From: Ignavibacteriota bacterium | GTDB lineage: Bacteria > Bacteroidota > Ignavibacteria > Tepidaquicellales > OLB5 | Direction: 5' to 3' | Assembly: GCA_003820375.1 (NCBI GenBank) | Contig: RPQH01000011.1 | Coordinates: forward strand, 4,783-68,782 | DNA length: 64,000 nucleotides | In this document: positions 2,219 through 59,555 of the stretch, piece after piece | Layout of the letters: each line of letters opens with the position of its first letter | Position numbering within the stretch: the stretch's first letter is position 1 | Made by a program: the position numbers and the translations under genes | Notes under the pieces: model-generated | Told to the model about the DNA's origin: nothing | Database searches by the model: none | What the model saw: the letters and a program-made list of their open reading frames with translations, nothing else

Positions 2219-2221
2219 ATT

Positions 2222-2260: not shown

Positions 2261-3141
2261 TACGCTGTTTGCATTTTTCTTCTTTCCTGCTCTATGCGCA
2301 GCAGTCTCATTGAATCTGTCTTAAACTTATTGTTGAATAATCCGAGGAAATAATTTCTGAATATATACCACCAAAAGCTTCTCTCTTTTAATGAATCATC
2401 TATTAAATGTTCAATCTTTTTATGTTCTTCAGGTAAAACGCTCCAGTGGAGTCCTGCTACTTCGTGATGAATTGTATGATACCCATTATTGAAAAGCATA
2501 TAATTGAGTAAACCTGTAAAATTTCTTGAATGGTTATACTCTGATTCTTCGTTTGCATGTACATGCTGTACATAATTAAATATCAGCACACTAAAAAGTG
2601 AGAACTGCTGTGGAATCACAACAAAAAGAATAGCTTTCTGCCAGTCCATAAAAAATGCTGCAGCAATCCATCCTGCAAGAATTACATACTGTGAAATACA
2701 CAGGTAAAAACGCGTCCTGTTATTTGTCCAAAGATGTTTAAGGAAATTCCTTATAGCTTTCTGCTGGTAATATCCGCTGATTGTCGGGTAAGTAAGGAGC
2801 GTTACAAGATTATTTTTCTCGCTGAAACGGTAAGTTATAGTATAATCACCGATACGGTTGTTCATTTTATGATGGTTCTTATTATGAGTTGGTATCCACG
2901 CAAATATTGGAAAGCCATAAAAAACTGTCAGCCACCAGTCGGTTAATTGATTCATTATCTTCGATTTCCAGATCGTAAGATGGTTATGATTATGTGTAAT
3001 CACAGCTACTGAAACTGATAAAAATAAATAAACTGTGTAAGAAACCGGATGCACACCAATAACAGTCCATTGCAACACCAGAAGTGCGGTTGTTATAACC
3101 ATGTAGATTATAGTTTTTATGTCGGCTTTGTATCTGAGCAT
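2260..3141 (-). CDS. membrane fatty-acid desaturase family protein
   Basis: 293 aa, multi-pass. His boxes HNHNH, HNKNHH and HTIHH are diagnostic of the di-iron membrane desaturase/hydroxylase superfamily. Confidence 0.8.
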   Translation of the reverse strand: MLRYKADIKTIIYMVITTALLVLQWTVIGVHPVSYTVYLFLSVSVAVITHNHNHLTIWKSKIMNQLTDWWLTVFYGFPIFAWIPTHNKNHHKMNNRIGDYTITYRFSEKNNLVTLLTYPTISGYYQQKAIRNFLKHLWTNNRTRFYLCISQYVILAGWIAAAFFMDWQKAILFVVIPQQFSLFSVLIFNYVQHVHANEESEYNHSRNFTGLLNYMLFNNGYHTIHHEVAGLHWSVLPEEHKKIEHLIDDSLKERSFWWYIFRNYFLGLFNNKFKTDSMRLLRIEQERRKMQTA

Positions 3142-12141: not shown

Positions 12142-12238
12142 GTGCATAGAGTGAATAGAGTGTATAGAGTGTGTTGAGTGTGTTGAGTGAATAGAGTGTG
12201 TTGAGTGTATAATAAATAGAGTGAATGGCAATTGCAGG
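12140..12238 (+). repeat. 9-nt degenerate tandem array (GAGTGNRTR family) starting inside the stop codon
   Basis: TGAGTGCATAGAGTGAATAGAGTGTATAGAGTGTGTTGAGTGTGTTGAGTGAATAGAGTG... Confidence 0.9.
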
Positions 12239-12413: not shown

Positions 12414-12458
12414 TATTGCTCATTGCTCATTGCTCATTGCTCATTGTTAATTGCAAAT
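12414..12458 (-). repeat. heptamer array (CAATGAG)n in the 3' region of T9SS paralog 1
   Basis: The + strand reads TTATTGCTCATTGCTCATTGCTCATTGCTCATTGTTAATTGCAAATG. Confidence 0.9.
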
Positions 12459-12459: not shown

Positions 12460-14250
12460 TTATTTTATCAGAGCCATTTTCTTCACATCACTAAATCCTT
12501 CGCATTCAAGCTTATAAAAATATAATCCGCTTGAATAATTCGTACCATCCCATACCACACTGTAATTGCCGGCATTTTGCTTTTCGTTTACTAATACAGC
12601 TACTTCTTTTCCCAATGCATCAAATATTGTCAGCTTCGCATAATTGTCAATTGGCAATTGATAACTGATAATTGTATTTGGATTGAACGGGTTTGGATAA
12701 TTTTGTGAAAGTGAAAATTCATCCGGTACTATGCTTTCAGGTTTTCTAATAATCCCAATCATTTGGGGAATAAAGCAAATATTAGGAAGTGTTGTCTGCA
12801 ATGCACCTGTTGTTATATCATTACACCCATCACCTGTTGTAAGGTCATTATGAGCATGATAAACCCTGCCTGTTACAGCGGTGGATTTTACTGTTGAGTT
12901 CGATGTATAACTTGAGTTATTAAAACATATTTCAATCAACAAATTTCCTCCGGTATATGTAAACGGAGTAGTGAGAGTAATAAACTGCATTCCGGTTCCG
13001 GGCATTGTAAATGCTCCGCTGTAAACTTCGGTCATTCCTGTTCCAAATCCGGATATTGTTGAAGCAGTTGTATTTTGCATCCTTATTTTAAAACCATTCA
13101 TTACCTGGGGAGCAGCAGAAATAACATCAAATCCAATTCGCATTATCGTAGCAGGGCTTGATCCTATTTCATTGGCAAGATACAGCATATCGGTTCTGGA
13201 ATCCATATAGAATGTATAGAATGGATATCCAACGGAAGTGGAACCTGTTCCCCAGCATGTCAGGAAGTAACCCGGAGGATACACTCTCACATTTGTTGAT
13301 ACGGTATCATTGCCTCTGTTTTGATCTGTTGCTAAAGCAGACACAATTTTGATATTAATAAAACCGGTATCTGCCGGAACCCAGTTAAATGTTACCGAAT
13401 CAACTGCACCTGCATTTAAGCTCATGGATATGGAATTAACCTGGGTACCCTGAATAAAGAATTTTACCGGAAAATTTGATTCGTTAGATGTACCGGTATT
13501 AGCTATCCTGGCTTTTACTTGTTTCTGCAAATTCGTATTGAAATACGCAGGTAAGCCGAGGAATGGACCTGTTGCAATATTATGAGCATATGTCTGACCT
13601 GTTCCATCGACTCTTACTCCGATAGCTTTATATTGCGAGAAGTAGTTTGTAATTGGTGCCCATGCTGACTGGATATATCCATAGCCCGGTCTCTGAGTTG
13701 TTGTAGCTGATTCATCTCCTCCTATATATTTTTGTCTATTCTCTACTGGTTGTGGATCAAAGCTAATTCCTACATAAACACTTCCGGATGTAATTGCAGG
13801 AATACCTGTTAAGTTTGTGAAATCATACCATTCTACTTGAGGCCATGTAGGAACGACAGTTACTGTCTGGTTAGGTACAGAAGCAAGTAAGTTACCCGGA
13901 GAACCGCCAGTACCTGTCTGGTCGTAGATTTCGATATCAAAGGTAAAGCTTAGTGAAGGTTGTGTTGGGTATCTTGTTAAAGCTAAGCATACCTGATTGA
14001 TAGTAAAAGGATATGATGTTGGGGTCATCAACATTACCCACTTACCAATGCCAAAGTTCGGACCCCATCCATACCCATTTTCAAATGTGTTATCATCATA
14101 GACTAATCCTCCAACACACTGCGGTCCTATTAATCCTTCAGTTCCTTTTACAAAGGGACTTCTATCATTAGCAATTTGTAAAGCCGACTGGGAATATATT
14201 AAACCGGTAAAAACTGAAAAGATGAAAAAAAGTAGAATGAGTTTTTTCAT
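12460..14250 (-). CDS. T9SS-sorted surface protein, tandem paralog 1 (unknown N-domain, CARDB-like middle domain, CTD)
   Basis: Start moved to the ATG at 14250 (MKKLILLFF, GAGG 6 nt upstream), matching the other paralogs. Conserved QCVGGLVYDDNTFENGYGW. CARDB-like VKARIANTGTSNE..NAGAVDSVTFNWVP. C-terminal LSQNYPNPFNP..GLYFYKLECEGFSDVKKMALIK. Confidence 0.85.
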   Translation of the reverse strand: MKKLILLFFIFSVFTGLIYSQSALQIANDRSPFVKGTEGLIGPQCVGGLVYDDNTFENGYGWGPNFGIGKWVMLMTPTSYPFTINQVCLALTRYPTQPSLSFTFDIEIYDQTGTGGSPGNLLASVPNQTVTVVPTWPQVEWYDFTNLTGIPAITSGSVYVGISFDPQPVENRQKYIGGDESATTTQRPGYGYIQSAWAPITNYFSQYKAIGVRVDGTGQTYAHNIATGPFLGLPAYFNTNLQKQVKARIANTGTSNESNFPVKFFIQGTQVNSISMSLNAGAVDSVTFNWVPADTGFINIKIVSALATDQNRGNDTVSTNVRVYPPGYFLTCWGTGSTSVGYPFYTFYMDSRTDMLYLANEIGSSPATIMRIGFDVISAAPQVMNGFKIRMQNTTASTISGFGTGMTEVYSGAFTMPGTGMQFITLTTPFTYTGGNLLIEICFNNSSYTSNSTVKSTAVTGRVYHAHNDLTTGDGCNDITTGALQTTLPNICFIPQMIGIIRKPESIVPDEFSLSQNYPNPFNPNTIISYQLPIDNYAKLTIFDALGKEVAVLVNEKQNAGNYSVVWDGTNYSSGLYFYKLECEGFSDVKKMALIK

Positions 14251-14302
14251 TTCAAGCCTCATTTTTTAAGTTAGGGGAAACAGCAATTTGAATATATTAT
14301 TA

Positions 14303-14400: not shown

Positions 14401-14464
14401 GCAATCTTTAATCTGCAATCTTTAATCTGCAATCTTTAATCTGCAATCTTTAATCTGCAATCTG
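14401..14464. repeat. 14-nt tandem array (GCAATCTTTAATCT, about 4.5 copies)
   Basis: Near-perfect direct repeats seen directly. They lie just downstream of the stop of paralog 2 in mRNA sense. The same vocabulary recurs at 59481-59555. Confidence 0.95.
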
Positions 14465-16267
14465 TTATTTAATCAATACCAGTTTCTTCACATCAGTAAA
14501 TTCATTGCATTCCAGTTTATAGAAATATAATCCTGAAGAATAATTCGTCCCATCCCATTCCACATTGTAACTTCCGGCATTTTGCTTTTCGTTTACTATT
14601 ACAGCCACTTCTCTTCCCAATGCATCGAATATTGTTAATTTCACATAATTGCTCATGGGCAATTGATAATTGATAATTGTTTTAGGATTGAATGGGTTGG
14701 GATAATTTTGTGAAAGCGAAAATTTGTCCGGTATATTATTGTTAATATTTTTCGTACCAATCATATTTGTCTGAAAGCATATATTTGGCAAATTTACCTG
14801 CACTGCTCCGGTTGTAAGATCTGTACATCCGCCTCCGTTTGGTAAATCTGAATGTTGATGAAAGATTTGCTGCCCGACAGGTGTGCTTAAAACTGTTGAA
14901 CTGGAAGCATTGCTTGAGTTGTTGAAACATATTTCGATTAACAGATTTGCGCCTGTATAAGTAAATGGAGTTGCAAGGTTAATAAACTGCCATCCTGTGC
15001 CCGGTATTGAATATGTTCCGCTATATACTTCTGTCCAGCCTGATGGTATAAATCCTGCAATTAATGTATAGGTTGTATTTTGCATCTTTATTGAGAAACC
15101 ATTCATTACTGCCTGCGGATATGCTTCTGATACATTGAATCCGATTTTCTGGATTGTTGTGCCTGCACCAAATCCAATTTGAGCAGCAGTGTATATCATC
15201 TGAGTTCTTGCATCCATATACCCTGTTTCAAATGGATAGGCTGCTGTAGTTACACCAGGACCCCAGCATGCCTGGTAAACTCCGGAAGGAAGTACATATA
15301 CTGTTGTTGTTACTGTATCGTCTGCTCTGTATTGATCTGAAGCTAAGGATGATATGACTTTAAGTATCTTTGTTCCTGTATCAGTTGGTGTCCAGCTAAA
15401 TGATACTGAATCTACTGCACCTGCATTTAAGTTCGTTGCGATTGTTGATACCTGTGTTCCATTCACTACAAATGAAATTGGAATACCTGTCTCGTTTGAT
15501 GTTCCAAAGTTTTTTATCTTTGCTTTAATAGTTTTTTGTACTCCCGTATTGAAGTATGCCGGTAAGCTAAGGAATGGACCAACACAAATGTTATGAGCAA
15601 AGTTTTGTACTATTCCATCGGCTCTTATACCAATAGCTCTGTAGCCGGAGTAGATGGTGTTCTGTATTGGCACCCAGGTTCCGGTTGTTTGAGTGTAAAA
15701 ATATCCGGCCCTTAATGGTGTTGTTGTAGATTGATCACGACCAATTAAATGTGATGTATAATATGTAACGTTATAGCTGATACCTGCATATACACTGCCT
15801 GAAGTAATGGGAGGAATACCTGTTATGCCGGCAAAATCGAACCATGTCACCGTTGGGAATGTCTGTACACCAACTGCTGTTTGATTTGGAATTATAGCAA
15901 GTAAGTTACCCGGGGAGCCGCCTGGTCCTGTATTATCATATACTACAATATCAAAGGTCCAGTCAGCTGAGCCGCTTGTTCCTTTTGTCAATGCAAAACA
16001 CAATTGATTTATTGTGTAGGGATAAGATTGCGGTGTCATCAGCATGACCCATTTATATATACTATAATAACCACTAATCCATCCACATCCGCCCTCAAAT
16101 GTATTATCATCATACACTAATCCTCCAACACATTGAGCTCCTAATATGCCTTCTGTACCTTTTTCAATATGAGTTTTATTGATTTCATCAAAAGGCAATG
16201 AATATTGTGAATAAATTAAGCAAGTAAAAATTGTTAAAGCAAAATAGAGTAGAATAAACTTTTTCAT
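14465..16267 (-). CDS. T9SS-sorted surface protein, tandem paralog 2
   Basis: 600 aa with the same domain order as 12460-14250. Signal peptide MKKFILLYFALTIF. T9SS CTD ..GLYFYKLECNEFTDVKKLVLIK. Confidence 0.85.
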   Translation of the reverse strand: MKKFILLYFALTIFTCLIYSQYSLPFDEINKTHIEKGTEGILGAQCVGGLVYDDNTFEGGCGWISGYYSIYKWVMLMTPQSYPYTINQLCFALTKGTSGSADWTFDIVVYDNTGPGGSPGNLLAIIPNQTAVGVQTFPTVTWFDFAGITGIPPITSGSVYAGISYNVTYYTSHLIGRDQSTTTPLRAGYFYTQTTGTWVPIQNTIYSGYRAIGIRADGIVQNFAHNICVGPFLSLPAYFNTGVQKTIKAKIKNFGTSNETGIPISFVVNGTQVSTIATNLNAGAVDSVSFSWTPTDTGTKILKVISSLASDQYRADDTVTTTVYVLPSGVYQACWGPGVTTAAYPFETGYMDARTQMIYTAAQIGFGAGTTIQKIGFNVSEAYPQAVMNGFSIKMQNTTYTLIAGFIPSGWTEVYSGTYSIPGTGWQFINLATPFTYTGANLLIEICFNNSSNASSSTVLSTPVGQQIFHQHSDLPNGGGCTDLTTGAVQVNLPNICFQTNMIGTKNINNNIPDKFSLSQNYPNPFNPKTIINYQLPMSNYVKLTIFDALGREVAVIVNEKQNAGSYNVEWDGTNYSSGLYFYKLECNEFTDVKKLVLIK

Positions 16268-26566: not shown

Positions 26567-28822
26567 ATGAAAAAAATTTACTTTCTTATTATTTTATTCT
26601 GTATAATAAATATTTCCTATTCACAATGGGTAAAAGTTTCAAATGGTCTTCCAAAACAAAAGGTTGTAGCGTTAACTACAAAAGGGAATAAAATATTTGC
26701 AGCAGTTGGTAATAGTGGTGTTATAGTAAATAACAATAATAGTGGTATTTTTCTAAGTACCAATAATGGATTAAACTGGTATGCTGCTAACAATGGAATG
26801 CAGGATACAAATAATGTCAGCTCACTTATCACTTGCGGTATAAATATTATTGCAGGTACAAGCAAAGGATTTTATAAGACTACCAACGATGGTCTTAGCT
26901 GGTATCAATCAAATAACGGGCTTCCTTCTAATTCTCCAATCAATGCAATGTCTGTTAATGGAGCTACTATTGCCGCATGTGTGTCCGCTACAAAAGTATA
27001 TATTAGTACAAATGAGGGTTCAAGTTGGTTTTATGCCAGTAGCAGTTTACCTGATCCGATATATTGTAGATCAATTGCCATTAACGGTAATAGCATTTTT
27101 TTTGGTACTGAATATACGTATCAAATAGCCGGCAGAGGCATTTATAAAAGCACAAATAATGGCATAAGCTGGTTTACAGTAAATAATGGTATCTCGAATA
27201 ATGTAAATATATTATCTTTAGCTGCAAATGGAACAAACTTATTTGCCGGAACTCGCGAAAATGGAATTTATCTTAGTACAAATGATGGAAATAACTGGAA
27301 GCAGGTAAATAATGGTCTTCCGTCTGAATCAGGATTTTCGGTACTTGCTATAAATGGAACAAGTGTTTTTACAGGCACCGGAGGATATTCATCACTATAT
27401 TATGGAATTTATAAGAGCACAAACAATGGAGCAAATTGGTTTGCGGTTAATAATGGTATTCAATTCAATAGTTTGAAAATTAATTCACTGGCAGTTAATA
27501 ACACAAACATATTTGCAGGCACTGCTGATAATTTGTATACAACGTCTAATGGCGGAACAAATTGGTTTATAGCATCTGATGGTATTCCGGGATGCACGAG
27601 AATCTTAACTTATTCGAGCATAGGAACAAACACATTTATTGGCTCATATTACGGTTATGGTGTTTATGTAAGTTCAGATTACGGAATCAATTGGAATCAG
27701 ATTAATAATGGATTACCGATAAATTTTATTAATGGGTATATATTAGCTTCCAGTAATGCATATTTATTTTCTGGTATCGATGGTAGTGGGCAAAATGGTT
27801 ATGGTGTTTACAAAAGCAGCGATAATGGGGCAAATTGGATTGCAGCTAATAATAATTTCCCGGTCAATACTTACAGAACAATAATTGCCTGTAACGGGTC
27901 CAATATTATTGCTAATGCTCATAATTGGGGAGTATATATAAGTACAAATCTGGGAATTAGCTGGAATGCTGCACCTATTTACACTACATTTAATATTCCA
28001 GCCAGCTGCTTTACCTTTTTAAGGAACAAAGTTTTTGCAGGTACAAATAGCACAAGCAGCACAGGTTACGGAATTTTTTCAAGCACGAATAACGGTACTA
28101 ATTGGGTCACTTCAAGTGATGGAATTCCTACGAATGCTCACATTAGATGTTTATCTGTAAATGGTAATAACATTTTTGCAGGAACAGGACTTTATACTGC
28201 TCATAATGGGCATGGAATTTATAAGAGTACGAACTCCGGTTTGAATTGGTTCGCTGTAAATAATGGAATCAATTCAAATGCAGAAATATCATTCATAATA
28301 TGTAATGGTTTGAACATATTTGCAGCAGATTTGGATAGAGGTATCTATTTGAGTACGGACAATGGTGAAAACTGGACATTGAAAAATGAAGGATTACCTG
28401 CATTTTATTTACTTGGTGCTCTCGGTGTAAGCGGAAATTATTTGTTTGTTAATGTGGATGGTCAAGAATTATATAGAAGAAGTATTTCGGAAATTACAAG
28501 TACAAATCCAATAAGCTCTAATGTTTCTTATGAATATTATTTATCCCAAAACTTTCCCAATCCCTTCAATCCATCAACAAAGATAAAGTTTGAAATTCCG
28601 GAAACCCCCCTTAGTCCCCCCTTTGGTAAAGGTGGGATAGTATCCCTGAAAATCTTTGATATACTTGGCAGGGAAGTTGCGATTCTCATAAATGATAAGC
28701 TCACTCCCGGCTCACATGAAGTTGATTGGAATGCAAGTGAATTTGCAAGCGGTGTGTATTTCTATTCATTGATTGCTGATGGAGTAATTATTGATACAAA
28801 GAAGCTTGTTTTGTTAAAATAA
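26567..28822 (+). CDS. BNR/Asp-box repeat protein with T9SS CTD carrying an in-frame insertion
   Basis: 751 aa with 13 repeats of the STNNGxNW type. Signal peptide. CTD NFPNPFNPSTKIKFEIP-ETPLSPPFGKGG-IVSLKIFDILG..GVYFYSL..KKLVLLK. Confidence 0.85.
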   Translation: MKKIYFLIILFCIINISYSQWVKVSNGLPKQKVVALTTKGNKIFAAVGNSGVIVNNNNSGIFLSTNNGLNWYAANNGMQDTNNVSSLITCGINIIAGTSKGFYKTTNDGLSWYQSNNGLPSNSPINAMSVNGATIAACVSATKVYISTNEGSSWFYASSSLPDPIYCRSIAINGNSIFFGTEYTYQIAGRGIYKSTNNGISWFTVNNGISNNVNILSLAANGTNLFAGTRENGIYLSTNDGNNWKQVNNGLPSESGFSVLAINGTSVFTGTGGYSSLYYGIYKSTNNGANWFAVNNGIQFNSLKINSLAVNNTNIFAGTADNLYTTSNGGTNWFIASDGIPGCTRILTYSSIGTNTFIGSYYGYGVYVSSDYGINWNQINNGLPINFINGYILASSNAYLFSGIDGSGQNGYGVYKSSDNGANWIAANNNFPVNTYRTIIACNGSNIIANAHNWGVYISTNLGISWNAAPIYTTFNIPASCFTFLRNKVFAGTNSTSSTGYGIFSSTNNGTNWVTSSDGIPTNAHIRCLSVNGNNIFAGTGLYTAHNGHGIYKSTNSGLNWFAVNNGINSNAEISFIICNGLNIFAADLDRGIYLSTDNGENWTLKNEGLPAFYLLGALGVSGNYLFVNVDGQELYRRSISEITSTNPISSNVSYEYYLSQNFPNPFNPSTKIKFEIPETPLSPPFGKGGIVSLKIFDILGREVAILINDKLTPGSHEVDWNASEFASGVYFYSLIADGVIIDTKKLVLLK

Positions 28823-29038: not shown

Positions 29039-29145
29039 AATTACGAATGACGAATGACGAGTTACGAATGAAGAATTACGAATTACGAATGACGAATTAC
29101 GAATGACGAATGACGAATTACGAATGACGAATTACGAATGACGAG
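29039..29145. repeat. heptamer array (ACGAATK)n, about 15 units
   Basis: TTACGAATGACGAATGACGAGTTACGAATGAAGAATTACGAATTACGAATG... It abuts the stop codon of the minus-strand gene 29146-29811. Its units are the reverse complement of the CAATTCG units left of the tRNA. Confidence 0.95.
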
Positions 29146-29811
29146 TTAACCTTTCAACCTGTAACCTGCAGCCACTCTGTGCCTGTCAACCCAATAAGCC
29201 CACAATACAAGCAGCCATTGTGTTAATCCAAGATAAGCAATAGATTTAACATCGGGCGGCGGCGGACCCATGATATTTCCAAAATAAATAATTACAAGAA
29301 AAACTATCAAAGCCCAAAAGGCATATGTGCCAATTTTATCTTTTGCAGATGTTGCAGAGATATAAAACCAAACTCCAAGGATGAAAATAACTGACTCAAG
29401 TATAATAGCAATAACCGGTGAATTCCACAATCCAAAGCCGACATTTGGTCCGGATGTAAGAAGAGGCAGGTCAGGGCGGTGTACAAACAGGTCAAGCACC
29501 CAGTGGCTTAATACCAATAAACCTACAATCAATGAATTCTTTACATTTCTTTTAATAAAGAAATAAATACCTCCAATAATAATACTCCATGCGAGTACAA
29601 AAATTAAGCTGTGGCTGTAGGGATAATCCGAAAAATTTAATGGTGTCATTATAGTATCACCCGGATTTATGACAACATGTTCAATTCCGAATAAGAGCAG
29701 CAATGGCCAAAGCAAATCAAGCCATTGAGAAGCAAGGAACAATGTTCCTAACGAAACCTGCGGAGCCGGTTTTTTGCCGGCTAATCCTGCACCAAAATGA
29801 CCTATAAACAT
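29146..29811 (-). CDS. multi-pass membrane protein, unknown function
   Basis: 221 aa and hydrophobic, with N-terminus MFIGHFGAGLAGKK. The ORFs that overlap it are short. Confidence 0.65.
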   Translation of the reverse strand: MFIGHFGAGLAGKKPAPQVSLGTLFLASQWLDLLWPLLLLFGIEHVVINPGDTIMTPLNFSDYPYSHSLIFVLAWSIIIGGIYFFIKRNVKNSLIVGLLVLSHWVLDLFVHRPDLPLLTSGPNVGFGLWNSPVIAIILESVIFILGVWFYISATSAKDKIGTYAFWALIVFLVIIYFGNIMGPPPPDVKSIAYLGLTQWLLVLWAYWVDRHRVAAGYRLKG

Positions 29812-34866: not shown

Positions 34867-36654
34867 ATGAAATTAATACAATCGTGTATAACTCTTCTTG
34901 TAATTCTTGCTGCCGGAAGCCCTGTTTTATCACAAAGAACTATTGATGATATAACGACAGTTGCTGAGTTTAAACAGTATGCCCGTTTAATGGCACCAAA
35001 TGAAAATGCTTTTGTGGCAGTGCAAAGGATTGCAAAAGAATATCTGGACAGTAAAGACTGGCAGGGTGCTGCACAGGTATTTGCCGCGTACAGCAAGCTA
35101 TTTCCTAATATGAATGAGCGTTTTGCAAAGATAGATTCGCTTTTGAAAGCATCTCCGCAAAATTTAATACTTACTAATCTAAGGGTAATAAATTCAAGTG
35201 ATGATGAATATTTTCCTGTAATTACAATAGATGAGAACCGTATATATTTTACCGGAAGCAGCAGAAAAGATAATATCGGCGGCGAAGATATCTTTTACTC
35301 CGACAGGATAAACGAGAAATGGACTAAGGCAAAGTTATTACCGGCCCCCTTCAGCACATATGAAAATGATGCTGTTAACAGTGTATCTGCAGACGGGATT
35401 ATTCTCGTTGTCTTTGGTACGTATAAAGGTGCAATCGGCGAAGGGGATAACTTTTATTCCGAAAGAACCGCTTCGGGATGGTCTGCAATAAAACCGTTTC
35501 AAGTTCCGGTTAATTCCAAGTACTGGGATTGTGACGGGTTTCTTTCTGCCGATGGCAAAGCATTCTTTTTTGTAAGTGACAGACCCGGGGGAACCGGTGA
35601 GTTCAACAGGAGCGGTTATCCTTTCCATGGTGATATACAAGGTAACACTGATATTTATGTTTGCGTCAAAAATGATTCAGGCTGGTCTGCTCCAATCAAT
35701 CTTGGCACTTATGTTAACACGCCTTATTCAGAACGCTCGCCTTTCCTGCATCCAGATGGAAGGACATTGTATTTTTCATCTGACGGCTTTTACGGACTTG
35801 GTGAGCTTGATGTATTTAAGACTGTCAGGTTAAATGATACCTCATGGACAGAATGGGGTAAACCGGTAAATCTCGGTAAAGATATTAATACAAGCGGAAC
35901 GGATATTGCATATAAGATTTCAACAAAAGGTGAACTCGCTTATTTTTCAACAAATTATTCCGGCGGTGAAGGCGGGTATGACATTTATTCGATAACACTT
36001 CCGCCTGAAGCAAGACCGCAAAGAAATGTGGTTGCCGTTAAAGGAAAAGTAACCGATGAAAATGATAATCCGCTTGATGCAAATATCAATTGGGCGGATA
36101 TTTCTTCTAACACAAATGTCGGAGCTTTAAAATCGGACCCTGTAACCGGCGATTATATCATCGTACTTCCTGTAGGGAAAGTTTACAGCTATTTTGCAGA
36201 TAAGCAGGGTTATTACTCGGTTTCAAATGAAGTGAATCTTTCGGATAAAACCGAATACTCGGAAATGAATGTTGATATAAAAATGATTGCTGTTAAATCA
36301 CTTGAGGAAACAGCAATAAAGCTAAATAATATTTATTTTGATTTTGATAAATATGACCTGAAGCCTGAATCATTCAGTGAACTGGAGAGAGTGTATAAAT
36401 TTCTCACAGATAATCCTGAAATTAAAGTAGAGATATCTGCACATACAGATGCAATAGGCAGCGAAGAATATAATATGGGACTTTCACAAAAGCGTGCACA
36501 AAGTGTTGTTGATTATCTTATCAGCATTGGTATCAATCAGGACAGGTTGATTGCAAAAGGTTACGGTAAAAGCCAGCCTGTAGCAGATAATGGTACCGAA
36601 GAAGGCAGAGCATTAAACAGAAGAGTGGAAATGAAAATAGTTAAGAGTCTATAG
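34867..36654 (+). CDS. OmpA-family protein with TolB-like repeats (paralog of the preceding gene)
   Basis: 595 aa, collinear with 32982-34793. Signal peptide. ..SAHTDAIGSEEYN..NRRVEMKI. Confidence 0.85.
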   Translation: MKLIQSCITLLVILAAGSPVLSQRTIDDITTVAEFKQYARLMAPNENAFVAVQRIAKEYLDSKDWQGAAQVFAAYSKLFPNMNERFAKIDSLLKASPQNLILTNLRVINSSDDEYFPVITIDENRIYFTGSSRKDNIGGEDIFYSDRINEKWTKAKLLPAPFSTYENDAVNSVSADGIILVVFGTYKGAIGEGDNFYSERTASGWSAIKPFQVPVNSKYWDCDGFLSADGKAFFFVSDRPGGTGEFNRSGYPFHGDIQGNTDIYVCVKNDSGWSAPINLGTYVNTPYSERSPFLHPDGRTLYFSSDGFYGLGELDVFKTVRLNDTSWTEWGKPVNLGKDINTSGTDIAYKISTKGELAYFSTNYSGGEGGYDIYSITLPPEARPQRNVVAVKGKVTDENDNPLDANINWADISSNTNVGALKSDPVTGDYIIVLPVGKVYSYFADKQGYYSVSNEVNLSDKTEYSEMNVDIKMIAVKSLEETAIKLNNIYFDFDKYDLKPESFSELERVYKFLTDNPEIKVEISAHTDAIGSEEYNMGLSQKRAQSVVDYLISIGINQDRLIAKGYGKSQPVADNGTEEGRALNRRVEMKIVKSL

Positions 36655-36786
36655 AGTTCAGAGAGTTTAGAGAGTATAGAGAGTTCAGAGAGTTTGGAGA
36701 GTTCGGAGAGTTCGGAGGGTTCAGAGAGTTCAGAGAGTTCAGAGAGTTCAGAGGGTTCAGAGAGTTCGGAGAGTTCGGAGAGTTTA
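36653..36786 (+). repeat. 9-nt tandem array (GAGAGTTYR), about 15 units, starting in the stop codon
   Basis: TAGAGTTCAGAGAGTTTAGAGAGTATAGAGAGTTCAGAGAGTTTGGAGAGTTCGGAGAGTTCGG... Confidence 0.95.
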
Positions 36787-41050: not shown

Positions 41051-41172
41051 AGAGTCAGGAGTTCAAGAGTCTGGAGTCGGGAGTCTGAGAGTTGAGAATC
41101 TAAGAGTTTGAAAGTCAGAGTTATAAGTTCGGGAGTTGAGAGCTATAAGTTTTAAAGTTGCGGGTTATGAGC
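41051..41172 (+). repeat. degenerate 7-9-nt array (GAGTYNR words)
   Basis: GAGTCAGGAGTTCAAGAGTCTGGAGTCGGGAGTCTGAGAGTTGAGAATCTAAGAGTTTGAAAGTCAGAG... Confidence 0.8.
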
Positions 41173-41251: not shown

Positions 41252-42982
41252 TTATTTTGTGTCGCGAAGACAGGAGAAGATAAAATCATTAATATCTTTT
41301 ACAGTAACATTTGGAGTGATTTTCATGAAAGTGGAAGGAGAGTTGTTCTGGTATATCCAGTTGGAAATTAATTTCATACTATCCAGCTCTTCTTTATTAT
41401 ATTTACCGTAATTGTTATATAATACAGAGCCAAAAAGGTTTCCTCTGAAATATATATTCTTAATCAATTCATTCAAAATCTCCTTGCCCTGTGTTGAATC
41501 CTGCAGGGCAGGGGAGACATAAAACGTCTTTACCAGCTTACCACCCGAAATAAAAAACAACTCACCGGAATTTTCCTCCCCGGTTTCCGGGCATTTTACA
41601 ATGTAGTTTTTCAGATTAATCTCTGCAGAGGTTAAAATCATGTTAGCCATTACTTTTTTCAGGTCTTCAATCCTGTCACGTAAAATCGATGCCTCTTCAA
41701 ATTGCAGTTGTTCTGAATATTCAAACATCTTTTTCTCGAGCATCTGAAGTGCTCCCGGGCTTGCTTCCGATTCGAGGAATGTTATAACACGGTTCACCTC
41801 TGCCCTGTAAGCAGGGTGCGGCTCCGAGAAATTGCACGGTGCATTGCATTGCTTAAATTCATGATACATGCAGGTTGAGTGTTTAACCGAAGGTGTTAAT
41901 TTTTTATCATCACATTTACGGAGGAAAAATCCCTTGTAAATCCTGTCAAGCAATGAATTAACCGTATACGAACTGCGGAATGGTCCGTAATATCTTCCGC
42001 CGTCCAGCTTCACCTCAAATGTTTTTTCTGCTTTGGGATACTCGTTCTGCACATCAATTTTGATAAATGGGAAATTGCTGTATCTCTTTGTTGCTGAATT
42101 ATACGGCGGCTTTAATGATTTTATCAGCCTGCTCTCAAGTATTAATGCAGAAAGCTCAGAGCCGGTAATTTCATAATTAACTTTTTGTACTTCACGCAGC
42201 ATTTTTTTTATCTTTGGTGTGTGCGATACATTATGATAGAAATAAGAACGTACCCTGCTGTTGAGATTCTTTGCCTTGCCGACATAAATTATCTTATCAT
42301 GTCTATCTTTCATAAAATATACACCGGAATTAAACGGGATATCCTTCAGCTGCTGCTTGATGCGTTTTATATTGGGTGGTATCTTTTCTGCTTCAAATAT
42401 TTTTTTATACTGGAATGAAAGTATTTCATCAATAGATTCGTATTCATATTCATTCAGCAGTGTATCAATAAACCTGAGGAGTATTTTTGCAGTTGCAGTA
42501 GCATCATCAAGTGCACGGTGTCTTCTTTCAACTTTTATCTGGTAATGTTGTGAAAGTGAATAAAGCGATTTTGACCTGAGATTCTTGTTTAGCCTTCTGG
42601 CAAGCCGTCCTGTACAAATGGTGGGTGTATCAACAGGCATCTCACCGCATCTTTGTAATGAGTTATTCAAAAACTTGTAATCGAACGATACATTATGCCC
42701 TCCCAGAACAACATTATCCGAACCGAAGGCAAAATCCTTTAGAATCGGCACAACTTTATCGAATGTTGGCTTATCGTACACCATTTCATTTGTAATTCCT
42801 GTAAGAGATGTAATATATGATGATATATACATCTGTGGATTTACAAGTGTTGAGAATTCTGAAATAATCTTTCCCTTCTGGATTTTAACCATTCCAATTT
42901 CCGTAATACGGTCATGGACGGCACTTAAACCGGTTGTTTCAACGTCTAATACTATGAATGTTGTATCTGAAATTGAGTTCAA
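41252..42982 (-). CDS. DnaQ-like 3'-5' exonuclease fused to a GIY-YIG (UvrC/Cho N-terminal-like) nuclease
   Basis: Exo motifs FIVLDVETTGL, GHNVSFDYKFL and HRALDDA. Then GVYFMKDRHDKIIYVGKAKNLNSRVRSYF and ELSALILESRLIKSLKPPYN. Confidence 0.85.
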   Translation of the reverse strand: MNSISDTTFIVLDVETTGLSAVHDRITEIGMVKIQKGKIISEFSTLVNPQMYISSYITSLTGITNEMVYDKPTFDKVVPILKDFAFGSDNVVLGGHNVSFDYKFLNNSLQRCGEMPVDTPTICTGRLARRLNKNLRSKSLYSLSQHYQIKVERRHRALDDATATAKILLRFIDTLLNEYEYESIDEILSFQYKKIFEAEKIPPNIKRIKQQLKDIPFNSGVYFMKDRHDKIIYVGKAKNLNSRVRSYFYHNVSHTPKIKKMLREVQKVNYEITGSELSALILESRLIKSLKPPYNSATKRYSNFPFIKIDVQNEYPKAEKTFEVKLDGGRYYGPFRSSYTVNSLLDRIYKGFFLRKCDDKKLTPSVKHSTCMYHEFKQCNAPCNFSEPHPAYRAEVNRVITFLESEASPGALQMLEKKMFEYSEQLQFEEASILRDRIEDLKKVMANMILTSAEINLKNYIVKCPETGEENSGELFFISGGKLVKTFYVSPALQDSTQGKEILNELIKNIYFRGNLFGSVLYNNYGKYNKEELDSMKLISNWIYQNNSPSTFMKITPNVTVKDINDFIFSCLRDTK

Positions 42983-53940: not shown

Positions 53941-55335
53941 ATGAAAATAGCTTTGTTTTTGTTACTGATTTCTGCTTGTTCTTTCCAGGTATTTCCGCAA
54001 TACACAATTGAAGTACCAATATCGAATTTAGTTCAGCCGGTAGCATTTTCATTTTTACCTAACAACAATGTAATAATCACACATAAACCGGGGCTTGTCA
54101 GAATTTACTCTATGGATGGCAGTATTGTCTCGGATTTCTGGAATTTTACAGATTCATGCAGTAGTGCCGGTGAACATGGAGCACTCGGCATTTGCCTTGA
54201 CCCGAATTATGCTACAAACCATTATATATATATCTACTATATTCACAGTAATCCGATGGGAATTAGAATAGTCAGACTTACTGAGAATAATAATGTTGGT
54301 ACAAACCCTTTCATCATATATAATTATTTACCTGCTCCGCTAACAGGATTTCATGTTGGAGGTAACGTAAAATTCGGTGCCGATGGAAAGCTCTATTTTT
54401 CCACCGGTGAAACAGCAGTATCTCCTAATGCACAATTGCTGACTAATCCGCTTGGAAAAATTTTACGTATTAATTCCAATGGGACGATTCCAACTGATAA
54501 TCCATTCTATGATGATGGTAATCCATCAACAGGTAATGATGACAGGATTTGGGCTTATGGATTAAGAAACAGCTTTGATTTCTGCTTTAGTCCTGTAAAT
54601 GATTCTCTTTATGCAACCGAGAATGGTGCCGCTCTTTATGATGAAGTAAATTTCATACGAAAAGGGAAGAATTACGGATGGCCGGTATGCCAGGGATATT
54701 GCAACCCATATAATCCTTTATATCAGCAGCCGATGCACGTTTGGGGTGTCCCTATACCTGCTTTGACCGGTATTATGGTTTATAGCGGCTCTGTCATGCC
54801 TGAGTTTAACGGTAAGCTTCTTGTTGCAGATAATAATTTCGGAAAAATATATAAATGTGATTTGGGTGATGCTCCAAATTATGATACTATTACCGGGGTC
54901 ACACAGGTTTTCGATCTTGATGGTTTTACTACATTGCTGCAGGGACCGGATGGGTTTATCTACGGACTGAGCGGCGGTTATATCACTGCCGGAGGATTAT
55001 ACAGAATCAAGCCGCAGGCTTTTGGAATTAAAAATAATAAGAATGTTGCTGATGTATTTGAGCTAAAACAAAATTTCCCGAATCCGTTTAATCCGAATAC
55101 TAAAATTAATTATGAATTAAAGGCGGCAAGTGATGTCCGCTTATCCGTATTTGATGTTACTGGGAAAGAGATAGCTGTTCTTATTAATAAAAAACAAAAC
55201 CCCGGCCCGTATGAAGTAATCTGGAATGCGGAAGGATTTTCAAGCGGTGTGTATTTTTACCGTATATCAGCCCGCAGGGACGGTTCTTCGACAGAAGAAT
55301 TTACTGATGAGAAAAAAATGATCTTAATTAAATGA
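53941..55335 (+). CDS. PQQ-dependent sugar dehydrogenase-like T9SS cargo, paralog 3
   Basis: 464 aa, collinear. The CTD has an extra RRDGSSTEE segment before the final strand. Confidence 0.85.
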   Translation: MKIALFLLLISACSFQVFPQYTIEVPISNLVQPVAFSFLPNNNVIITHKPGLVRIYSMDGSIVSDFWNFTDSCSSAGEHGALGICLDPNYATNHYIYIYYIHSNPMGIRIVRLTENNNVGTNPFIIYNYLPAPLTGFHVGGNVKFGADGKLYFSTGETAVSPNAQLLTNPLGKILRINSNGTIPTDNPFYDDGNPSTGNDDRIWAYGLRNSFDFCFSPVNDSLYATENGAALYDEVNFIRKGKNYGWPVCQGYCNPYNPLYQQPMHVWGVPIPALTGIMVYSGSVMPEFNGKLLVADNNFGKIYKCDLGDAPNYDTITGVTQVFDLDGFTTLLQGPDGFIYGLSGGYITAGGLYRIKPQAFGIKNNKNVADVFELKQNFPNPFNPNTKINYELKAASDVRLSVFDVTGKEIAVLINKKQNPGPYEVIWNAEGFSSGVYFYRISARRDGSSTEEFTDEKKMILIK

Positions 55336-55400
55336 GTGTATAAAATATATGGAGTGTCCGGCTATTGCCGGATAACTGCAGCGGGTTAAAGCAATTAAAC

Positions 55401-55435
55401 AAAAAGCGTTCTTCAATAGAACGCTTTTTCGTTTT
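55401..55435 (+). terminator. intrinsic terminator
   Basis: AGCGTTCT (55405-55412) / AGAACGCT (55418-55425) followed by TTTTTCGTTTT. Confidence 0.8.
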
Positions 55436-55454
55436 ATTTGTTATAGTATTTAAG

Positions 55455-56873
55455 ATGAAAACAAATAAAATAATATTTCTGCTTTTGTTTATTCCCGTTA
55501 CGTTTTTTTCCCAGTTTTACACAGCAGATACACTCATTACCAATCTCAGCTATCCGGTTGCTTTTGCATTTCTGCCTGACGGGAATGTAATGATTACACT
55601 AAAAGAAGGACCGGTGAAAATATATACTCTGAATAACACAATTGTTTCGCAGGTCTGGAATTTTACGGATTCATGTGTCTCTGACGGCGAAAGGGGTGTG
55701 CTTGGTATTTGCGCAGACCCGCAATTTACGGTTAACAGGTATATCTATATTTATTATGTTCATGCTATACCGCCTTTACCAACAGAACCGCAATGGCTTA
55801 GAGTTGTCAGGTTAACATTGAATGCTAATAATACAGGAGGAAATCCTTTTATTGTTTTTAATCACCCGGTAGAAGTTATTGGATGCTGTCATGTTGGGGG
55901 TAATGTCCATTTTGGACATGACGGGAAACTGTATCTTACACTTGGTGAAACAAATAACCAGCCCGCAGCACAATCAAAAGTTACACCGCTTGGAAAAATA
56001 TTGAGAATGAATTCGAACGGTACGGCACCAACAGATAATCCTTTCTATGATGACGGCAATCCGAATTCGGGAAATGATGACAGGATTTGGTGCATGGGAT
56101 TAAGAAACAGCTTTGATTTTTGCTTCAGTCCCATTAATGATTCACTGTATGCAACTGAAAATGGATTAATTACTGCTGATGAAGTTAACTATATACGTAA
56201 AGGTAAAAACTACGGCTGGCCAATTTGCGAAGGTTACTGCAATCCTCCTGTAGATTCATTTACTCAGCCAATGCACACCTGGTCACCGACTATTGCTGTT
56301 ACGGGAATAATGGTCTACCAGGGAACGCAGTATCCTGAATTGAACGGGAGATTGTTAGTTGCAGATAATAAAAACGGAAGAATATATAAATGTGAGTTGG
56401 GCAGGGCACCTGCTTATGATACTATAATTTCACGTACACAAATAATTGAGCTGGGACCGCTGACATCTTTAATGCAGGGTACTGATGGATTCATTTATGT
56501 TTTAAACGGCGGTTATGAGCCAAGTGGAAAATTACACAGAATAAGACCATCAAGCATTGGAGTAAACAATAATCAACAAGAGGTACCCGGTGGATTTGTT
56601 CTTTATCAGAATTATCCGAATCCGTTCAATCCAAAAACTATTATCAATTACCAATTGACAATGAGCAATTATGTGATGTTAACAATCTATGATTTAATAG
56701 GAAGAGAAGTTGCTGTGCTCGTTAGCCAAAAACAAAATGAAGGCAATTATAAAGTTGAATGGGATGCATCAAATTATCCAAGCGGAGTTTATTTCTATAA
56801 GCTAACTGTCCGGCAAGCCGGATCTTCGACAGGAAATTTCTCTGCGGAAAAAAAGATGGTCCTGTTGAAATGA
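55455..56873 (+). CDS. PQQ-dependent sugar dehydrogenase-like T9SS cargo, paralog 4
   Basis: I prefer the ATG at 55455 (MKTNKIIFLLLFIPVTFFSQ signal peptide), because the track start at 55365 runs through the terminator. The CTD has an RQAGSSTGN insertion. Confidence 0.85.
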   Translation: MKTNKIIFLLLFIPVTFFSQFYTADTLITNLSYPVAFAFLPDGNVMITLKEGPVKIYTLNNTIVSQVWNFTDSCVSDGERGVLGICADPQFTVNRYIYIYYVHAIPPLPTEPQWLRVVRLTLNANNTGGNPFIVFNHPVEVIGCCHVGGNVHFGHDGKLYLTLGETNNQPAAQSKVTPLGKILRMNSNGTAPTDNPFYDDGNPNSGNDDRIWCMGLRNSFDFCFSPINDSLYATENGLITADEVNYIRKGKNYGWPICEGYCNPPVDSFTQPMHTWSPTIAVTGIMVYQGTQYPELNGRLLVADNKNGRIYKCELGRAPAYDTIISRTQIIELGPLTSLMQGTDGFIYVLNGGYEPSGKLHRIRPSSIGVNNNQQEVPGGFVLYQNYPNPFNPKTIINYQLTMSNYVMLTIYDLIGREVAVLVSQKQNEGNYKVEWDASNYPSGVYFYKLTVRQAGSSTGNFSAEKKMVLLK

Positions 56874-57092
56874 GTGTATGGAGTGTGTAGATTATATGGA
56901 GTGCAGTAACCGTGTTACTGCTAATTAATTTGGAGCGTACCCGTCCTGTTTACAGGAGTAACCGCTTAACCCCCAGTACTTTTGCCGTTATATAATTCAT
57001 TAAATAAAGTACTCCCAATTATATTATTCAATAAATCAACAATTATTACTAATTTACTTTAATTTCATTGTAGATATTAAAGTAAAAAATTA

Positions 57093-58514
57093 TTGAATAA
57101 CATAACCGGTTTGAAAAATTCATTTCTGAAAAGATATGACTTGTGGATAATTTTTGCGGTGACCTTTGCGGTTTTTGCTTTTCTGAAAATTCACCAATTT
57201 TACTCGTTTACTTCAATTAATGCTGAAGTCATTGACTGGTATGAAACAACGGTCTGGAATTTTCTGCAGGGGAAGTTTTTTATTGCAAATCATAATATAC
57301 CTTTATTCTCTGAACATTTTTCTCCTTTTATAATATTTTTAGTGCCGTTTTATGCTTTGTTCCGTTCACCTTATGTATTTATTGTAATTCATGCTTTGGC
57401 TTGCGCTCTTCCTGTTATCCCGCTTTATCTTTTAGCAGAAAAATATTTTACTTACCGGTTTGCTCCGGTTGCTTTTTGTCTTGCTTATTTTTTTTCAAGG
57501 ATAGTCAATTTAGGATTGATGTTTGACTTCCATATAGAAATATTTTATCCGCTTCTGTTTTTATCTGCTCTTTTGTATATTGAAAAAGTCAGGTGGAATT
57601 TAGTTTATGTATTCTTAATACTGGCTTTAATGATTAAAGAAGATGCCTCAATTGCAGTTATTGCAATTGGTATATACATTTTCTTCAGCAAAGAAAAACA
57701 AAAAGGGATTATAATTTCATTAATTGGTTTGACCTGGCTTCTTCTTACTACTCAGGTGATAATTCCATATTACCGTGCCGGTATATACGGATGGGGTTAC
57801 GGATTTTTAAGTTACTGGTCTGAATATGGAAATACACAAAAAGATATTTTTCTGAATATGTTCAACCCGGTAAAACATATACAGGTTCTTTTCACCGGTG
57901 CGAAGATGCAAAGTACTTTTAACTTTTTTTCCGTTTATCTTTTCCTGCCTTTCTTTGCTCCGCTTGCTTTTTTACTTCTTGTTTTGCCGCAGTGGTTCCT
58001 TTTATATTCTTCCGGCAATACTATGATGTTCAATGTTGTAAATTATTACGGTTATCTTTCATTGCCTTTTTTATTTTATACCTGTATTCTTGGATTTAAG
58101 AATATTGAAAAGAAAGTTCACAAAAAATATTTTATCATATCCATTTTGATATTGCTGGTTATTGTGAATGCCGCTAACTCAAGGTATTACAAATTATTTT
58201 TTCAGGATTCTATGAAGAAAAAAGCCAGGTACGAGGTAGTCGAAAAAATTATTGAAAACATACCGCCTCAATCGAGCATTACCGCACAGGCAAACCTGGT
58301 GGGGCATATACCTCCAGGAGAAAACCGCGTATTCTTTCCGCAGAATATAAATGAATCGGAGTTAATACTTCTGGACCTTGAAGGTGCTAAATGGCCTTTA
58401 TCGGATTCAGATTACAAACAGTGTGTTGATACACTTCTGAATAATATTAATTTCAGGGTAATTGAAAATAATTCATCGTTTCTATACATAGAAAATTTAC
58501 AAGTAAAGAAATAA
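57093..58514 (+). CDS. polytopic membrane protein (DUF2079-like, possible GT-C-type glycosyltransferase)
   Basis: 473 aa with many TM segments and a soluble C-terminal domain. TTG start as in the track, with no nearby in-frame ATG. Confidence 0.6.
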   Translation: MNNITGLKNSFLKRYDLWIIFAVTFAVFAFLKIHQFYSFTSINAEVIDWYETTVWNFLQGKFFIANHNIPLFSEHFSPFIIFLVPFYALFRSPYVFIVIHALACALPVIPLYLLAEKYFTYRFAPVAFCLAYFFSRIVNLGLMFDFHIEIFYPLLFLSALLYIEKVRWNLVYVFLILALMIKEDASIAVIAIGIYIFFSKEKQKGIIISLIGLTWLLLTTQVIIPYYRAGIYGWGYGFLSYWSEYGNTQKDIFLNMFNPVKHIQVLFTGAKMQSTFNFFSVYLFLPFFAPLAFLLLVLPQWFLLYSSGNTMMFNVVNYYGYLSLPFLFYTCILGFKNIEKKVHKKYFIISILILLVIVNAANSRYYKLFFQDSMKKKARYEVVEKIIENIPPQSSITAQANLVGHIPPGENRVFFPQNINESELILLDLEGAKWPLSDSDYKQCVDTLLNNINFRVIENNSSFLYIENLQVKK

Positions 58515-58517: not shown

Positions 58518-58686
58518 GAGTGTGTAGAGTGTGTGGAGTGAGTGGAGTGTGTAGAGTGTGTAGAGTGTGTGGAGTGTGTGGAGTGTGTGGAGTGTGTGGA
58601 GTGTGTGTAGTGTGTAGAATGTGTAGAGTGTGTAGAATGTGTAGAGTGCATTGAGTGTGTAGGTACGTTGAGTGTGTGGAGTTTGT
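58518..58686 (+). repeat. 9-nt tandem array (GAGTGTGTR), about 18 units
   Basis: TAAATTGAGTGTGTAGAGTGTGTGGAGTGAGTGGAGTGTGTAGAGTGTGTAGAGTGTGTGGAGTGTGTGG... Confidence 0.95.
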
Positions 58687-58693
58687 AGTCAGC

Positions 58694-59336: not shown

Positions 59337-59440
59337 CAATTAGCAATTTGCAATGAGCAATGGAGAGTTCAGAGAGTTTGGAGAGTTCAGAGAGTTTGGA
59401 GAGTTCAGAGAGTTAAGAGAGTTTAGAGTGTTTGGAGAGT
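59337..59440 (+). repeat. heptamer (CAATNNG) then 9-nt (GAGAGTTYR) tandem arrays
   Basis: CAATTAGCAATTTGCAATGAGCAATGGAGAGTTCAGAGAGTTTGGAGAGTTCAGAGAGTTTGG... Confidence 0.95.
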
Positions 59441-59480: not shown

Positions 59481-59555
59481 TAATCTTTAATCTATAATCT
59501 TTAATCTGTAATCTTTAATCTGTAATCTGTAATCTTTAATCTGTAATCTTTAATT
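59481..59555 (+). repeat. 7-nt tandem array (TAATCTK)
   Basis: TAATCTTTAATCTATAATCTTTAATCTGTAATCTTTAATCTGTAATCTGTAATC... Confidence 0.95.

Follow-up and report, generated by a model that had tools for sequence, protein, structure and literature searches.

Tandem nonamer and heptamer arrays with a positional and strand bias at stop codons in a 64-kb stretch of an Ignavibacteriota genome

Tandem Repeats Finder (TRF) detects at least eight families of short repeat units, nearly all of them intergenic, in the 64,000-nt stretch of DNA analysed here (the window; contig RPQH01000011.1, positions 4,783 to 68,782, from an Ignavibacteriota bacterium). Among them is the nonamer GAGAGTTYR, which forms an array that begins inside the stop codon of an OmpA-family gene. 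Arrays of this and of unrelated units preferentially start at stop codons and carry their G-rich strand in the mRNA; they grow in place and turn over rapidly. Our preferred reading, held with only slightly more belief than doubt, is that the arrays are transcribed microsatellites of the 3' untranslated region (3' UTR), of the kind described as short tandemly repeated repetitive (STRR) sequences or long simple sequence repeats (LSSR), which would be generated by slippage, filtered by strand and devoid of a gene-specific function. Arrays of 7-9-nt units such as the STRR, TAACTGA and GGGNATC types have been known for decades and, to our knowledge, neither an accepted function nor an accepted origin has been assigned to them. 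The rule described here is the sharpest positional rule found for such arrays, as it comprises a start at the stop codon, a G-rich mRNA strand and an end at the terminator, and extends to unrelated units and several phyla. It thereby turns a vague repeat class into testable predictions on strand-specific Rho loading, R-loops, orientation and repeat stability.

The array at the OmpA-family gene

The gene and the array that overlaps its 3' end are positioned as follows.

34867..36654, + strand: OmpA-family/PD40 gene, with its stop codon inside the array
36643..36786, + strand: GAGAGTTYR nonamer array of about 16 units, delimited by TRF and by reading in register

TRF describes the array (36653-36784) with a period of 9, 14.7 copies, 89% matches, 0% indels and a score of 187. 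Read in register, the junction is ...AAG AGT CTA TAG AGT TCA GAG AGT TTA GAG..., in which unit 1 (AAGAGTCTA, two mismatches to the consensus) encodes K-S-L, the last codons of the gene, and unit 2 (TAGAGTTCA) supplies its TAG stop, in register with the units. An initial annotation of the window, made from the sequence alone, had proposed that about 15 degenerate 9-nt units start in this TAG, and both the TRF score and the register of the stop agree with that proposal. Exact copies of GAGAGTTYR occur 19 times in the window, compared to 1.1 +/- 1.1 times in shuffled sequences. The array is distinct from clustered regularly interspaced short palindromic repeats (CRISPR), as the annotation had also held: these consist of repeats of about 23-55 nt with unique spacers of similar length, whereas in the OmpA array unit follows unit directly, at 9 nt from one start to the next and without spacers.

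That the arrays are artefacts of assembly, as the many matches at contig ends of metagenome-assembled genomes (MAGs) could suggest, is virtually inconceivable. An independent Joint Genome Institute contig (3300027722 Ga0209819_10000100) shows 100% identity over 7.8 kb, array included, so that this second assembly is identical. Furthermore, arrays are found inside long contigs and complete chromosomes (OY969701.1, OZ243957.1).

In sense orientation the OmpA array consists of 39% G and 8% C. This is the opposite of the composition expected of a Rho utilization (rut) site in the mRNA, which is C-rich, G-poor and unstructured, and the remark of the annotation that the sense units are G/U-rich and C-poor therefore holds. 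The antisense strand of the array does fit a rut site in composition.

Directly downstream of the array, a HicB gene and a hicA-like gene (92 aa, no Pfam hit) form a pair at window 36883-37588, with a small palindrome rich in AT (gatactacatatagtatc) ahead of it. Between the array and this pair, no clear intrinsic terminator was found.

Other GAGAGTTYR arrays in the window

Three further arrays of the same family are present in the window, one of them abutting a terminator hairpin.

2221..2262, - strand: GAGAGTTYR/GAAAGTTTG array of about 4.4 units, starting at the G of the desaturase TAG in mRNA sense
2182..2216, bidirectional: terminator hairpin abutting the 3' end of the 2221 array
59363..59440, + strand: GAGAGTTYR array of 8.7 units with an 18-nt higher-order period
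41051..41172 (TRF 41066-41160), + strand: decayed GAGAGTT-like array (matches of about 68%), which follows copy B of the element described below at its 3' end

The gene 2260..3141 (minus strand) encodes a fatty-acid desaturase and ends in TAG. On the minus strand, 2221-2262 reads gcg TAG AGAGTTCAG AGAGTTTGG AAAGTTTGG AAAGTTTGG AGAA and is directly followed by the terminator hairpin. As the array lies directly between the desaturase TAG and the hairpin, it is in mRNA sense and fills the whole spacer from stop to terminator. The same vocabulary thus follows a second, unrelated gene in mRNA sense, as had been annotated, and the annotated recurrences at 59360-59440 and, in degenerate form, at 41051-41172 were recovered as well, with 8.7 copies and 68% matches, respectively. 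Both genes with a stop-adjacent GAGAGTT array have TAG as their stop codon, a rare choice in the window (6 of 46 stops).

The broader claim of the annotation, that the arrays begin at stop codons and keep sense orientation after unrelated genes, stands with one qualification. It agrees with the statistics, with other unit families of the window and with arrays in other phyla, but two of the GAGAGTTYR arrays depart from it. The 59363 array lies 848 nt past the nearest upstream stop, not at the stop of a long gene, and is one of six different arrays clustered within 1.1 kb of intergenic sequence (58518-59554). The 41051 array runs antisense to the gene whose end is nearest to it (41252..42982, minus strand). 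Only two of the four GAGAGTTYR arrays come after the stop of a clearly real gene.

The 41051 and 59363 arrays are both located at the 3' end of copies of a non-coding element of ~650 nt, which occurs three times in the window (20185-20830, 40404-41050 and 58776-59330), with 87% identity between copies A and B over 281 nt. Every copy opens with an 11-mer array (AGTTGGGTTCA or TCAGTGGGCAC). The conserved boxes of the element are TAACTCATTGCAGTATAAGGAGATAAC, GAGTTAAAGTAATACTTnAAGG and a sigma-70-like CTTGACA-N17-TATATTAA, and it may contain an open reading frame (ORF) of 19-24 aa ending in ..EKNMY*. The element has no match in Rfam, either at the gathering threshold or at E <= 1, and is absent from the contigs of relatives that were fetched.

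Other unit families and the edges of the arrays

The window also contains a second nonamer family, GAGTGTRTR, as well as genuine heptamer arrays. Both had been missed by the initial annotation and follow the same rule, with GAGTGTRTR and three heptamer arrays also starting 0-5 nt from stop codons.

12140..12226, + strand: GAGTGTRTR array, beginning inside the TGA of the type IX secretion system (T9SS) cargo gene 9577..12141
55334..55360, + strand: vestigial GAGTGT units, beginning in the TGA of the GSDH/T9SS gene 53941..55335
56872..56903, + strand: GAGTGTRTR array of 3.6 units, from the TGA of gene 55365..56873 to the terminator hairpin at 56903-56921
58518..58688, + strand: GAGTGTRTR array of 19 units, 3 nt past the TAA of the DUF2079 gene 57093..58514
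12415..12454, - strand: heptamer array, GAGCAAT in gene sense, 5 nt past the TAA of gene 12460..14262
14401..14464, - strand: heptamer/14-mer array, AGATTGC/AGATTAA in gene sense, abutting the TAA of gene 14465..16267
29039..29148, - strand: heptamer array, CGTCATT/CGTAATT in gene sense, from the TAA of gene 29146..29811 to 7 nt from tRNA-Arg
59481..59554, + strand: heptamer array of 10.6 TAATCTK units, 55 nt upstream of metG

Of the 15 intergenic arrays, six are found no more than 5 nt from a stop that points inward, compared to 1.16 expected from random placement within the same spacers of the window (p about 5e-5). Two small arrays outside this 15-array test (2221 and 56872) start at stops as well, and these two are tight on both edges, in the order stop, array and terminator. 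Beyond the 12140 array, a hairpin followed by a T-run was recognised by eye at a distance of ~100 nt (~12318-12350), which the terminator scan did not list. In addition, the tRNA-Arg(CCG) gene (28960-29032) is bordered at 6-7 nt on both sides by heptamer arrays (window 28923-29148), namely ATTCGCA x4.4 and AATGACG/AATTACG x15, so that the arrays stop at RNA-gene boundaries too.

A further nonamer family, TCTGATAAA / ATTTATCAG, is present at window 28887-28925 and 59056-59095 in opposite orientations on the + strand. Its G and C contents are balanced, and neither copy is flush with a stop.

Rewriting of stop codons and last residues

Where the arrays meet genes, they can rewrite the stop codon or the last residues of real proteins. 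Orthologues of the OmpA-family protein with 60-67% identity end in ...NRRVEMKIIK*, while the window protein ends in ...KIVKSL*, its two extra codons being encoded by the repeat unit. A similar effect is seen among the 11 genes of the window with the T9SS tail ..KKxxLxK*, which are found at 9577-12141, 12460-19940, 26567-28822, 43225-43857 and 50863-56873. All three of these genes with GAGTGT units end in TGA (T|GAGTG) and all eight without such units in TAA (Fisher p about 0.006). Pfam confirms the sorting domain in 10 of the 11, the exception being 26567..28822. Over all sources, the stop falls in phase 6, 7, 8 or 0 of the unit in 23 of 33 stop-adjacent arrays, and these are the phases in which TAG, TGA or TAA is least unlike the junction YR|GAG. 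The window holds two tandem clusters of four paralogous T9SS cargo genes (12460-19940 and 50863-56873), of CARDB-type (~600 aa) and GSDH-type (~460 aa).

An open frame of 58 codons follows the OmpA TAG, and read-through of this rare codon, which GAGAGTT arrays follow at both genes, would add a Ser/Glu-rich tail (SSESLESIESSE...) to the protein. Such a coding extension is highly improbable, however. The frame of the repeat relative to the upstream gene is unlike between loci, with the desaturase frame reading RVQRVW..., and the GAGTGT and heptamer arrays carry stops in the frame of their gene. The orthologues stop before the array and have no such tail, and in T9SS cargo an added tail would bury the C-terminal sorting domain. 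The sole ORF across the OmpA array, of 84 aa (MFELS..SELSELSEP..), is its antisense translation. The annotation was therefore correct on both counts, in calling the repeats non-coding and in dismissing the SELSELSEP frame.

Strand polarity and occurrence in other genomes

One genome per species was scanned for stretches with three or more GAGAGTTYR units, which yielded at least 95 such stretches from many phyla, with several loci each from single genomes (Pyrinomonadaceae, a Zixibacteria MAG, Alistipes/Rikenellaceae, Ignavibacteriaceae, Thermoanaerobaculia and others). ORFs at these loci were taken from stop to stop without a gene finder, and greedy gene calls are noisy in the high-GC loci. 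Where GAGAGTTYR arrays adjoin a stop among the matches listed from other phyla, the gene-sense strand is G-rich in 36 cases versus C-rich in three. The stop of a sense ORF lies within 10 nt of the 5' edge in 24 of the arrays listed, compared to an antisense ORF stop at the 3' edge in four. The bias is not confined to this unit, as 31 stop-adjacent arrays of unrelated units hold more G than C in 24 cases and more C than G in six (mean G 0.27, C 0.12). Ordinary 3' UTR starts without arrays in the window have a G content of 0.11 and a C content of 0.145. Amplification of the local 3'-UTR composition is thus ruled out as a cause, since array-free 3' UTRs are G-poor.

Of 98 cases, again among the matches listed, 18 have an inverted copy after the array, beside a gene that is convergent or downstream, and none has one before it. 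With the inverted partner always after, and each array in sense to its own gene, the polarity tracks the gene and not the direction of replication. A replication-strand cause of the orientation is ruled out by such paired inverted arrays at one locus, each of which runs in the sense of its own gene. The pairs have the form (GAGAGTTYR)n, a short loop and (YRAACTCTC)n by the neighbouring gene, which gives long tandem-repeat hairpins, mostly in Pyrinomonadaceae; they were seen at loci L006, L013, L020, L036, L037, L040, L041, L046 (by eye), L051, L054, L064, L081, L092 and L094.

A link to secreted or membrane proteins, suggestive in the window, is ruled out by the other phyla, where the upstream genes are unrelated housekeeping and membrane genes and ordinary cytoplasmic enzymes. 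In viral contigs the GAGAGTTYR pattern gave six matches, compared to 11, 5 and 16 for three permuted-unit controls. As this count is not above the controls, the recurrence across phyla is no evidence of a special unit or of horizontal transfer. A resemblance of AGAGTTTG to the 5' end of 16S rRNA found no support either, since TTTA units outnumber TTTG units. Tandem periods in 629 kb (loci L002-L096) are dominated by 7 (73 arrays) and 9 (147, of which ~96 by selection), with 10 of period 8, three of period 10 and five of period 11.

At the RNA level, the arrays of the window fold no better than shuffled sequence (z = +1.44 and +0.46), which rules out a role as hairpin or terminator, and Rfam searches over all arrays gave no match at the gathering threshold or at E <= 1. 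The four or more runs of at least three G that define a G-quadruplex are lacking, as GAGAGTTYR and GAGTGTRTR contain no GGG.

The polarity could also be mutational in origin. Past the stop codon, ribosome-free RNA may re-anneal to its template, and G-rich RNA on a C-rich template would give R-loops and slippage during replication, so that repeats that are G-rich in sense would expand preferentially from the stop onward without selection on orientation. This would explain why arrays start at the stop as well as why their non-template strand is G-rich, and it fits arrays that are fast-changing and not conserved; immunoglobulin switch regions likewise carry G-rich tandem repeats on the non-template strand. 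However, the heptamer families are only weakly G-skewed, with C exceeding G in one, and the tight 3' edge at terminators is not accounted for. We give this explanation rather little credence.

Turnover of the arrays

The initial annotation had considered four candidate roles, namely 3'-UTR stabilisers, landing pads for an RRM protein, anti-Rho elements and hypermutable spacers, and of these the last, with its rapid turnover, is the best supported. The comparison of orthologous loci points the same way: no array follows the stop in the OmpA orthologues compared (60-67% identity), nor does the syntenic 13-kb contig of a relative (MetG 87% identical, with the gene order of window 43.9-62 kb) contain any. 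This relative has only one of the four GSDH paralogues (L181 7404-8801) and no DUF2079 gene at that place, from which it follows that the lineage of the window expanded both genes and repeats. At the position of the (TAATCTK)10.6 array upstream of metG, the same relative (L181 8920-8950) has gCAATCTaTAATCa, a two-unit seed, and a second relative (L182 620-690) has a degenerate heptamer run, AACCTGT AACTTGT AATCTTC AATTTTA.... The position upstream of metG is conserved and the array is not.

Turnover is also seen between closer genomes. In two that are 94% identical over 3.9 kb (L061 4620-4860 versus L080 1-250), the spacers around an orthologous AACTCTC array are wholly different, and the array has ~4-5 units in one genome versus at least 14, up to the contig end, in the other. 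Higher-order periods of 14, 18, 21 and 27 nt (TRF) point to block duplication. At the strain level, the only other contigs with the same proteins are 100% identical, and no record of the DUF2079 protein was found. Taken together, the absence of arrays at orthologous loci argues against a gene-specific role, and the decayed 41051 array argues against selection on the array sequence itself.

These observations bear on the proposal, also raised by the annotation, that the arrays are landing pads for proteins. Unstructured G/U/A-rich repeats would then offer multivalent sites to a protein that binds single-stranded RNA (RRM, cold-shock or S1-type). Such a protein would regulate the stability of the mRNA or, alternatively, target the terminating ribosome, and so explain the start at the stop. 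The strong sense-strand polarity, the location between stop and terminator, which implies that the arrays are transcribed, and the lack of RNA structure all suit this proposal. Unit sizes of 7 and 9 nt are within the footprint range of a single domain, and an RRM protein is indeed encoded in the window, at 1868 as annotated. Nevertheless, many unrelated units obey the same positional rule, which would call for several binding specificities, and the arrays are absent at orthologous loci and highly variable between close relatives. The decay of the 41051 array further suggests that purifying selection is absent, and nothing ties the RRM gene to the arrays except its proximity to one of them. Landing pads are thus a doubtful explanation, albeit one that deserves some weight.

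An insertional or mobile origin is very unlikely. A transposase- or recombinase-like activity that spreads arrays, or palindromes of an array and its inverted copy, and targets stops through microhomology (TGAG, TAGAG), by analogy with repetitive extragenic palindromic (REP) and REPIN elements, would account for the same families at several unrelated loci, for the preferred phases in which the stop overlaps the first unit (23 of 33) and for the palindromic arrangements in Pyrinomonadaceae. However, no terminal structures or target duplications were found, nor an associated transposase in the window. In addition, for one array a relative has the seed at the corresponding site, the copy number is continuous and the edges of the arrays are degenerate.

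A model for array formation and polarity

For the arrays as slippage-generated 3'-UTR microsatellites, the following sequence of events is proposed. The genome would be prone to tandem duplication of 7 and 9 nt, and short seeds just past a stop would be amplified in place by slipped-strand mispairing combined with duplication of blocks of 2-3 units. The array would then encroach on its flanks until it has taken over all freely varying sequence between stop and terminator. Because it occupies this free sequence, its 5' edge would settle on the stop codon, which may be rewritten in the process, and its 3' edge on a terminator hairpin, a tRNA or the next array. Of the two orientations, that with the G-rich, C-poor strand in the mRNA would alone persist. 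As the strand filter we favour Rho: this factor would load on untranslated RNA that contained a long, unstructured and C-rich repeat, whereas the observed orientation would hide the mRNA from it and let the Rho-loading strand fall on the antisense transcript.

Several points weigh against this model. Slippage alone explains neither the presence of one unit family at several unrelated loci nor the dominance of periods 7 and 9 over 8 and 10. Expansion pushes the flanks apart without overwriting them, and a further process is required to bring arrays flush with the stop, for which spacer loss through microhomology or conversion of the flank would be candidates. At operon ends a Rho filter should be of little consequence, yet the bias is also seen between convergent genes. 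Furthermore, C exceeds G in the sense strand of the heptamer family CGTCATT (29039), and the evidence from other phyla comes from crude ORF calls at loci that are non-independent and were chosen for carrying the GAGAGTTYR family.

Alternatively, the arrays may constitute a functional 3'-end module shared by several phyla (Ignavibacteriota, Bacteroidota, Zixibacteria, Acidobacteriota), which we consider fairly unlikely. The module would consist of directional insulators or, as a variant, of multivalent pads for a single-stranded-RNA-binding protein at the terminating ribosome. As insulators, the arrays would give RNA that leads away from the gene and is G-rich and invisible to Rho. RNA transcribed towards the gene would carry YC-rich stretches at regular intervals, on which Rho would load and so halt transcription that is antisense or reads in. 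Two arrays that meet between convergent genes would form a hairpin.

Comparison with known repeat classes

The arrays have the general features of STRR- and LSSR-like repeats, namely head-to-tail units of 5-11 nt without spacers, a frequency above chance and a multi-family, non-coding nature. Like the STRR of heterocystous cyanobacteria, they are spacer-less arrays of short units, with several families per genome, that lie between genes at many loci. The annotation had named STRR as the nearest analogue, and STRR-type arrays are indeed the closest. The likeness does not extend to the strict definition of the class, since the unit here has 9 nt and is not a heptanucleotide, although separate 7-nt arrays co-occur in the window, and the host belongs to the Ignavibacteriae and is not a heterocystous cyanobacterium. 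Consensus sequences of STRR are CCCCAGT, TTGGTCA and CAACAGT, and no TRF repeat unit of the window resembles these versions of the consensus. We know of no stop-anchored, mRNA-sense rule described for STRR.

The closest precedent for the position is provided by heptamers of the type GGGNATC / GGGGAYT in Xanthomonas and Nostoc, which are mostly located on the coding strand within 50 bp of a stop, which they sometimes overlap (Rehm et al. 2015, PMC4692102). These heptamers are transcribed, vary between close relatives and have no tie to a gene class (PMC4692102). Their G-rich strand leads away from the closest ORF, and the arrays described here likewise have the G-rich strand on the coding strand, no more than 50 bp from the stop. 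However, the heptamers form G-quadruplexes and prefer four copies, while GAGAGTTYR has no G-runs, a period of 9 and a flush junction with the stop, and arrays here reach 15-19 copies. The positional bias of G-rich heptamers near stops is therefore already known (Rehm et al. 2015). New are the 9-nt period without G-quadruplex potential, the flush junction that rewrites the stop, the generality across unit families and the occurrence in Ignavibacteriota, Zixibacteria, Acidobacteriota and Bacteroidota.

Heptamers of the TAACTGA type are found in Beggiatoaceae, Cyanobacteria and some Bacteroidetes (MacGregor 2015, PMC4679880). They share with the present arrays a scattered phylogeny that includes Bacteroidetes, long and mixed intergenic heptamer arrays, and relatives without arrays at the same loci. 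In the best-studied genome, however, they mostly lie just upstream of start codons, in forward orientation and in 2-6 copies, whereas the arrays here come after stops. The LSSR class (Mrazek 2007, as summarised in PMC4679880), which has units of 5-11 nt and is proposed to arise by slippage, agrees in unit length, tandem structure, above-chance length and sporadic distribution among genomes; in that summary it is a purely descriptive class, without a rule for position or strand.

REP sequences and bacterial interspersed mosaic elements (BIME) likewise occupy 3' UTRs just past stops, between co-directional or convergent genes. The arrays of the window differ from them in being direct repeats with no predicted RNA structure and with no inverted copies of their family nearby. 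Hairpins that resemble REP/BIME were found only for the arrays paired with an inverted copy in other phyla, as in Pyrinomonadaceae. Finally, the tandem repeats of Borgs (PMC9879509) are similar in that they evolve fast, are formed locally, have flanks of partial units and show a composition biased by gene strand. They differ in being perfect, A-rich and longer in unit, and in being confined to an archaeal extrachromosomal element.

In practical terms, arrays of this kind break assemblies, give rise to false antisense ORFs, of which the 84-aa SELSEL protein is an example, and can give real genes an altered stop codon or altered final residues.

Other features of the window

At the 5' end of the window, a DUF805b RNA motif (RF02914) was identified at positions 5-39, just upstream of the ORF 63..398, with 41.4 bits compared to a gathering threshold of 35.6.

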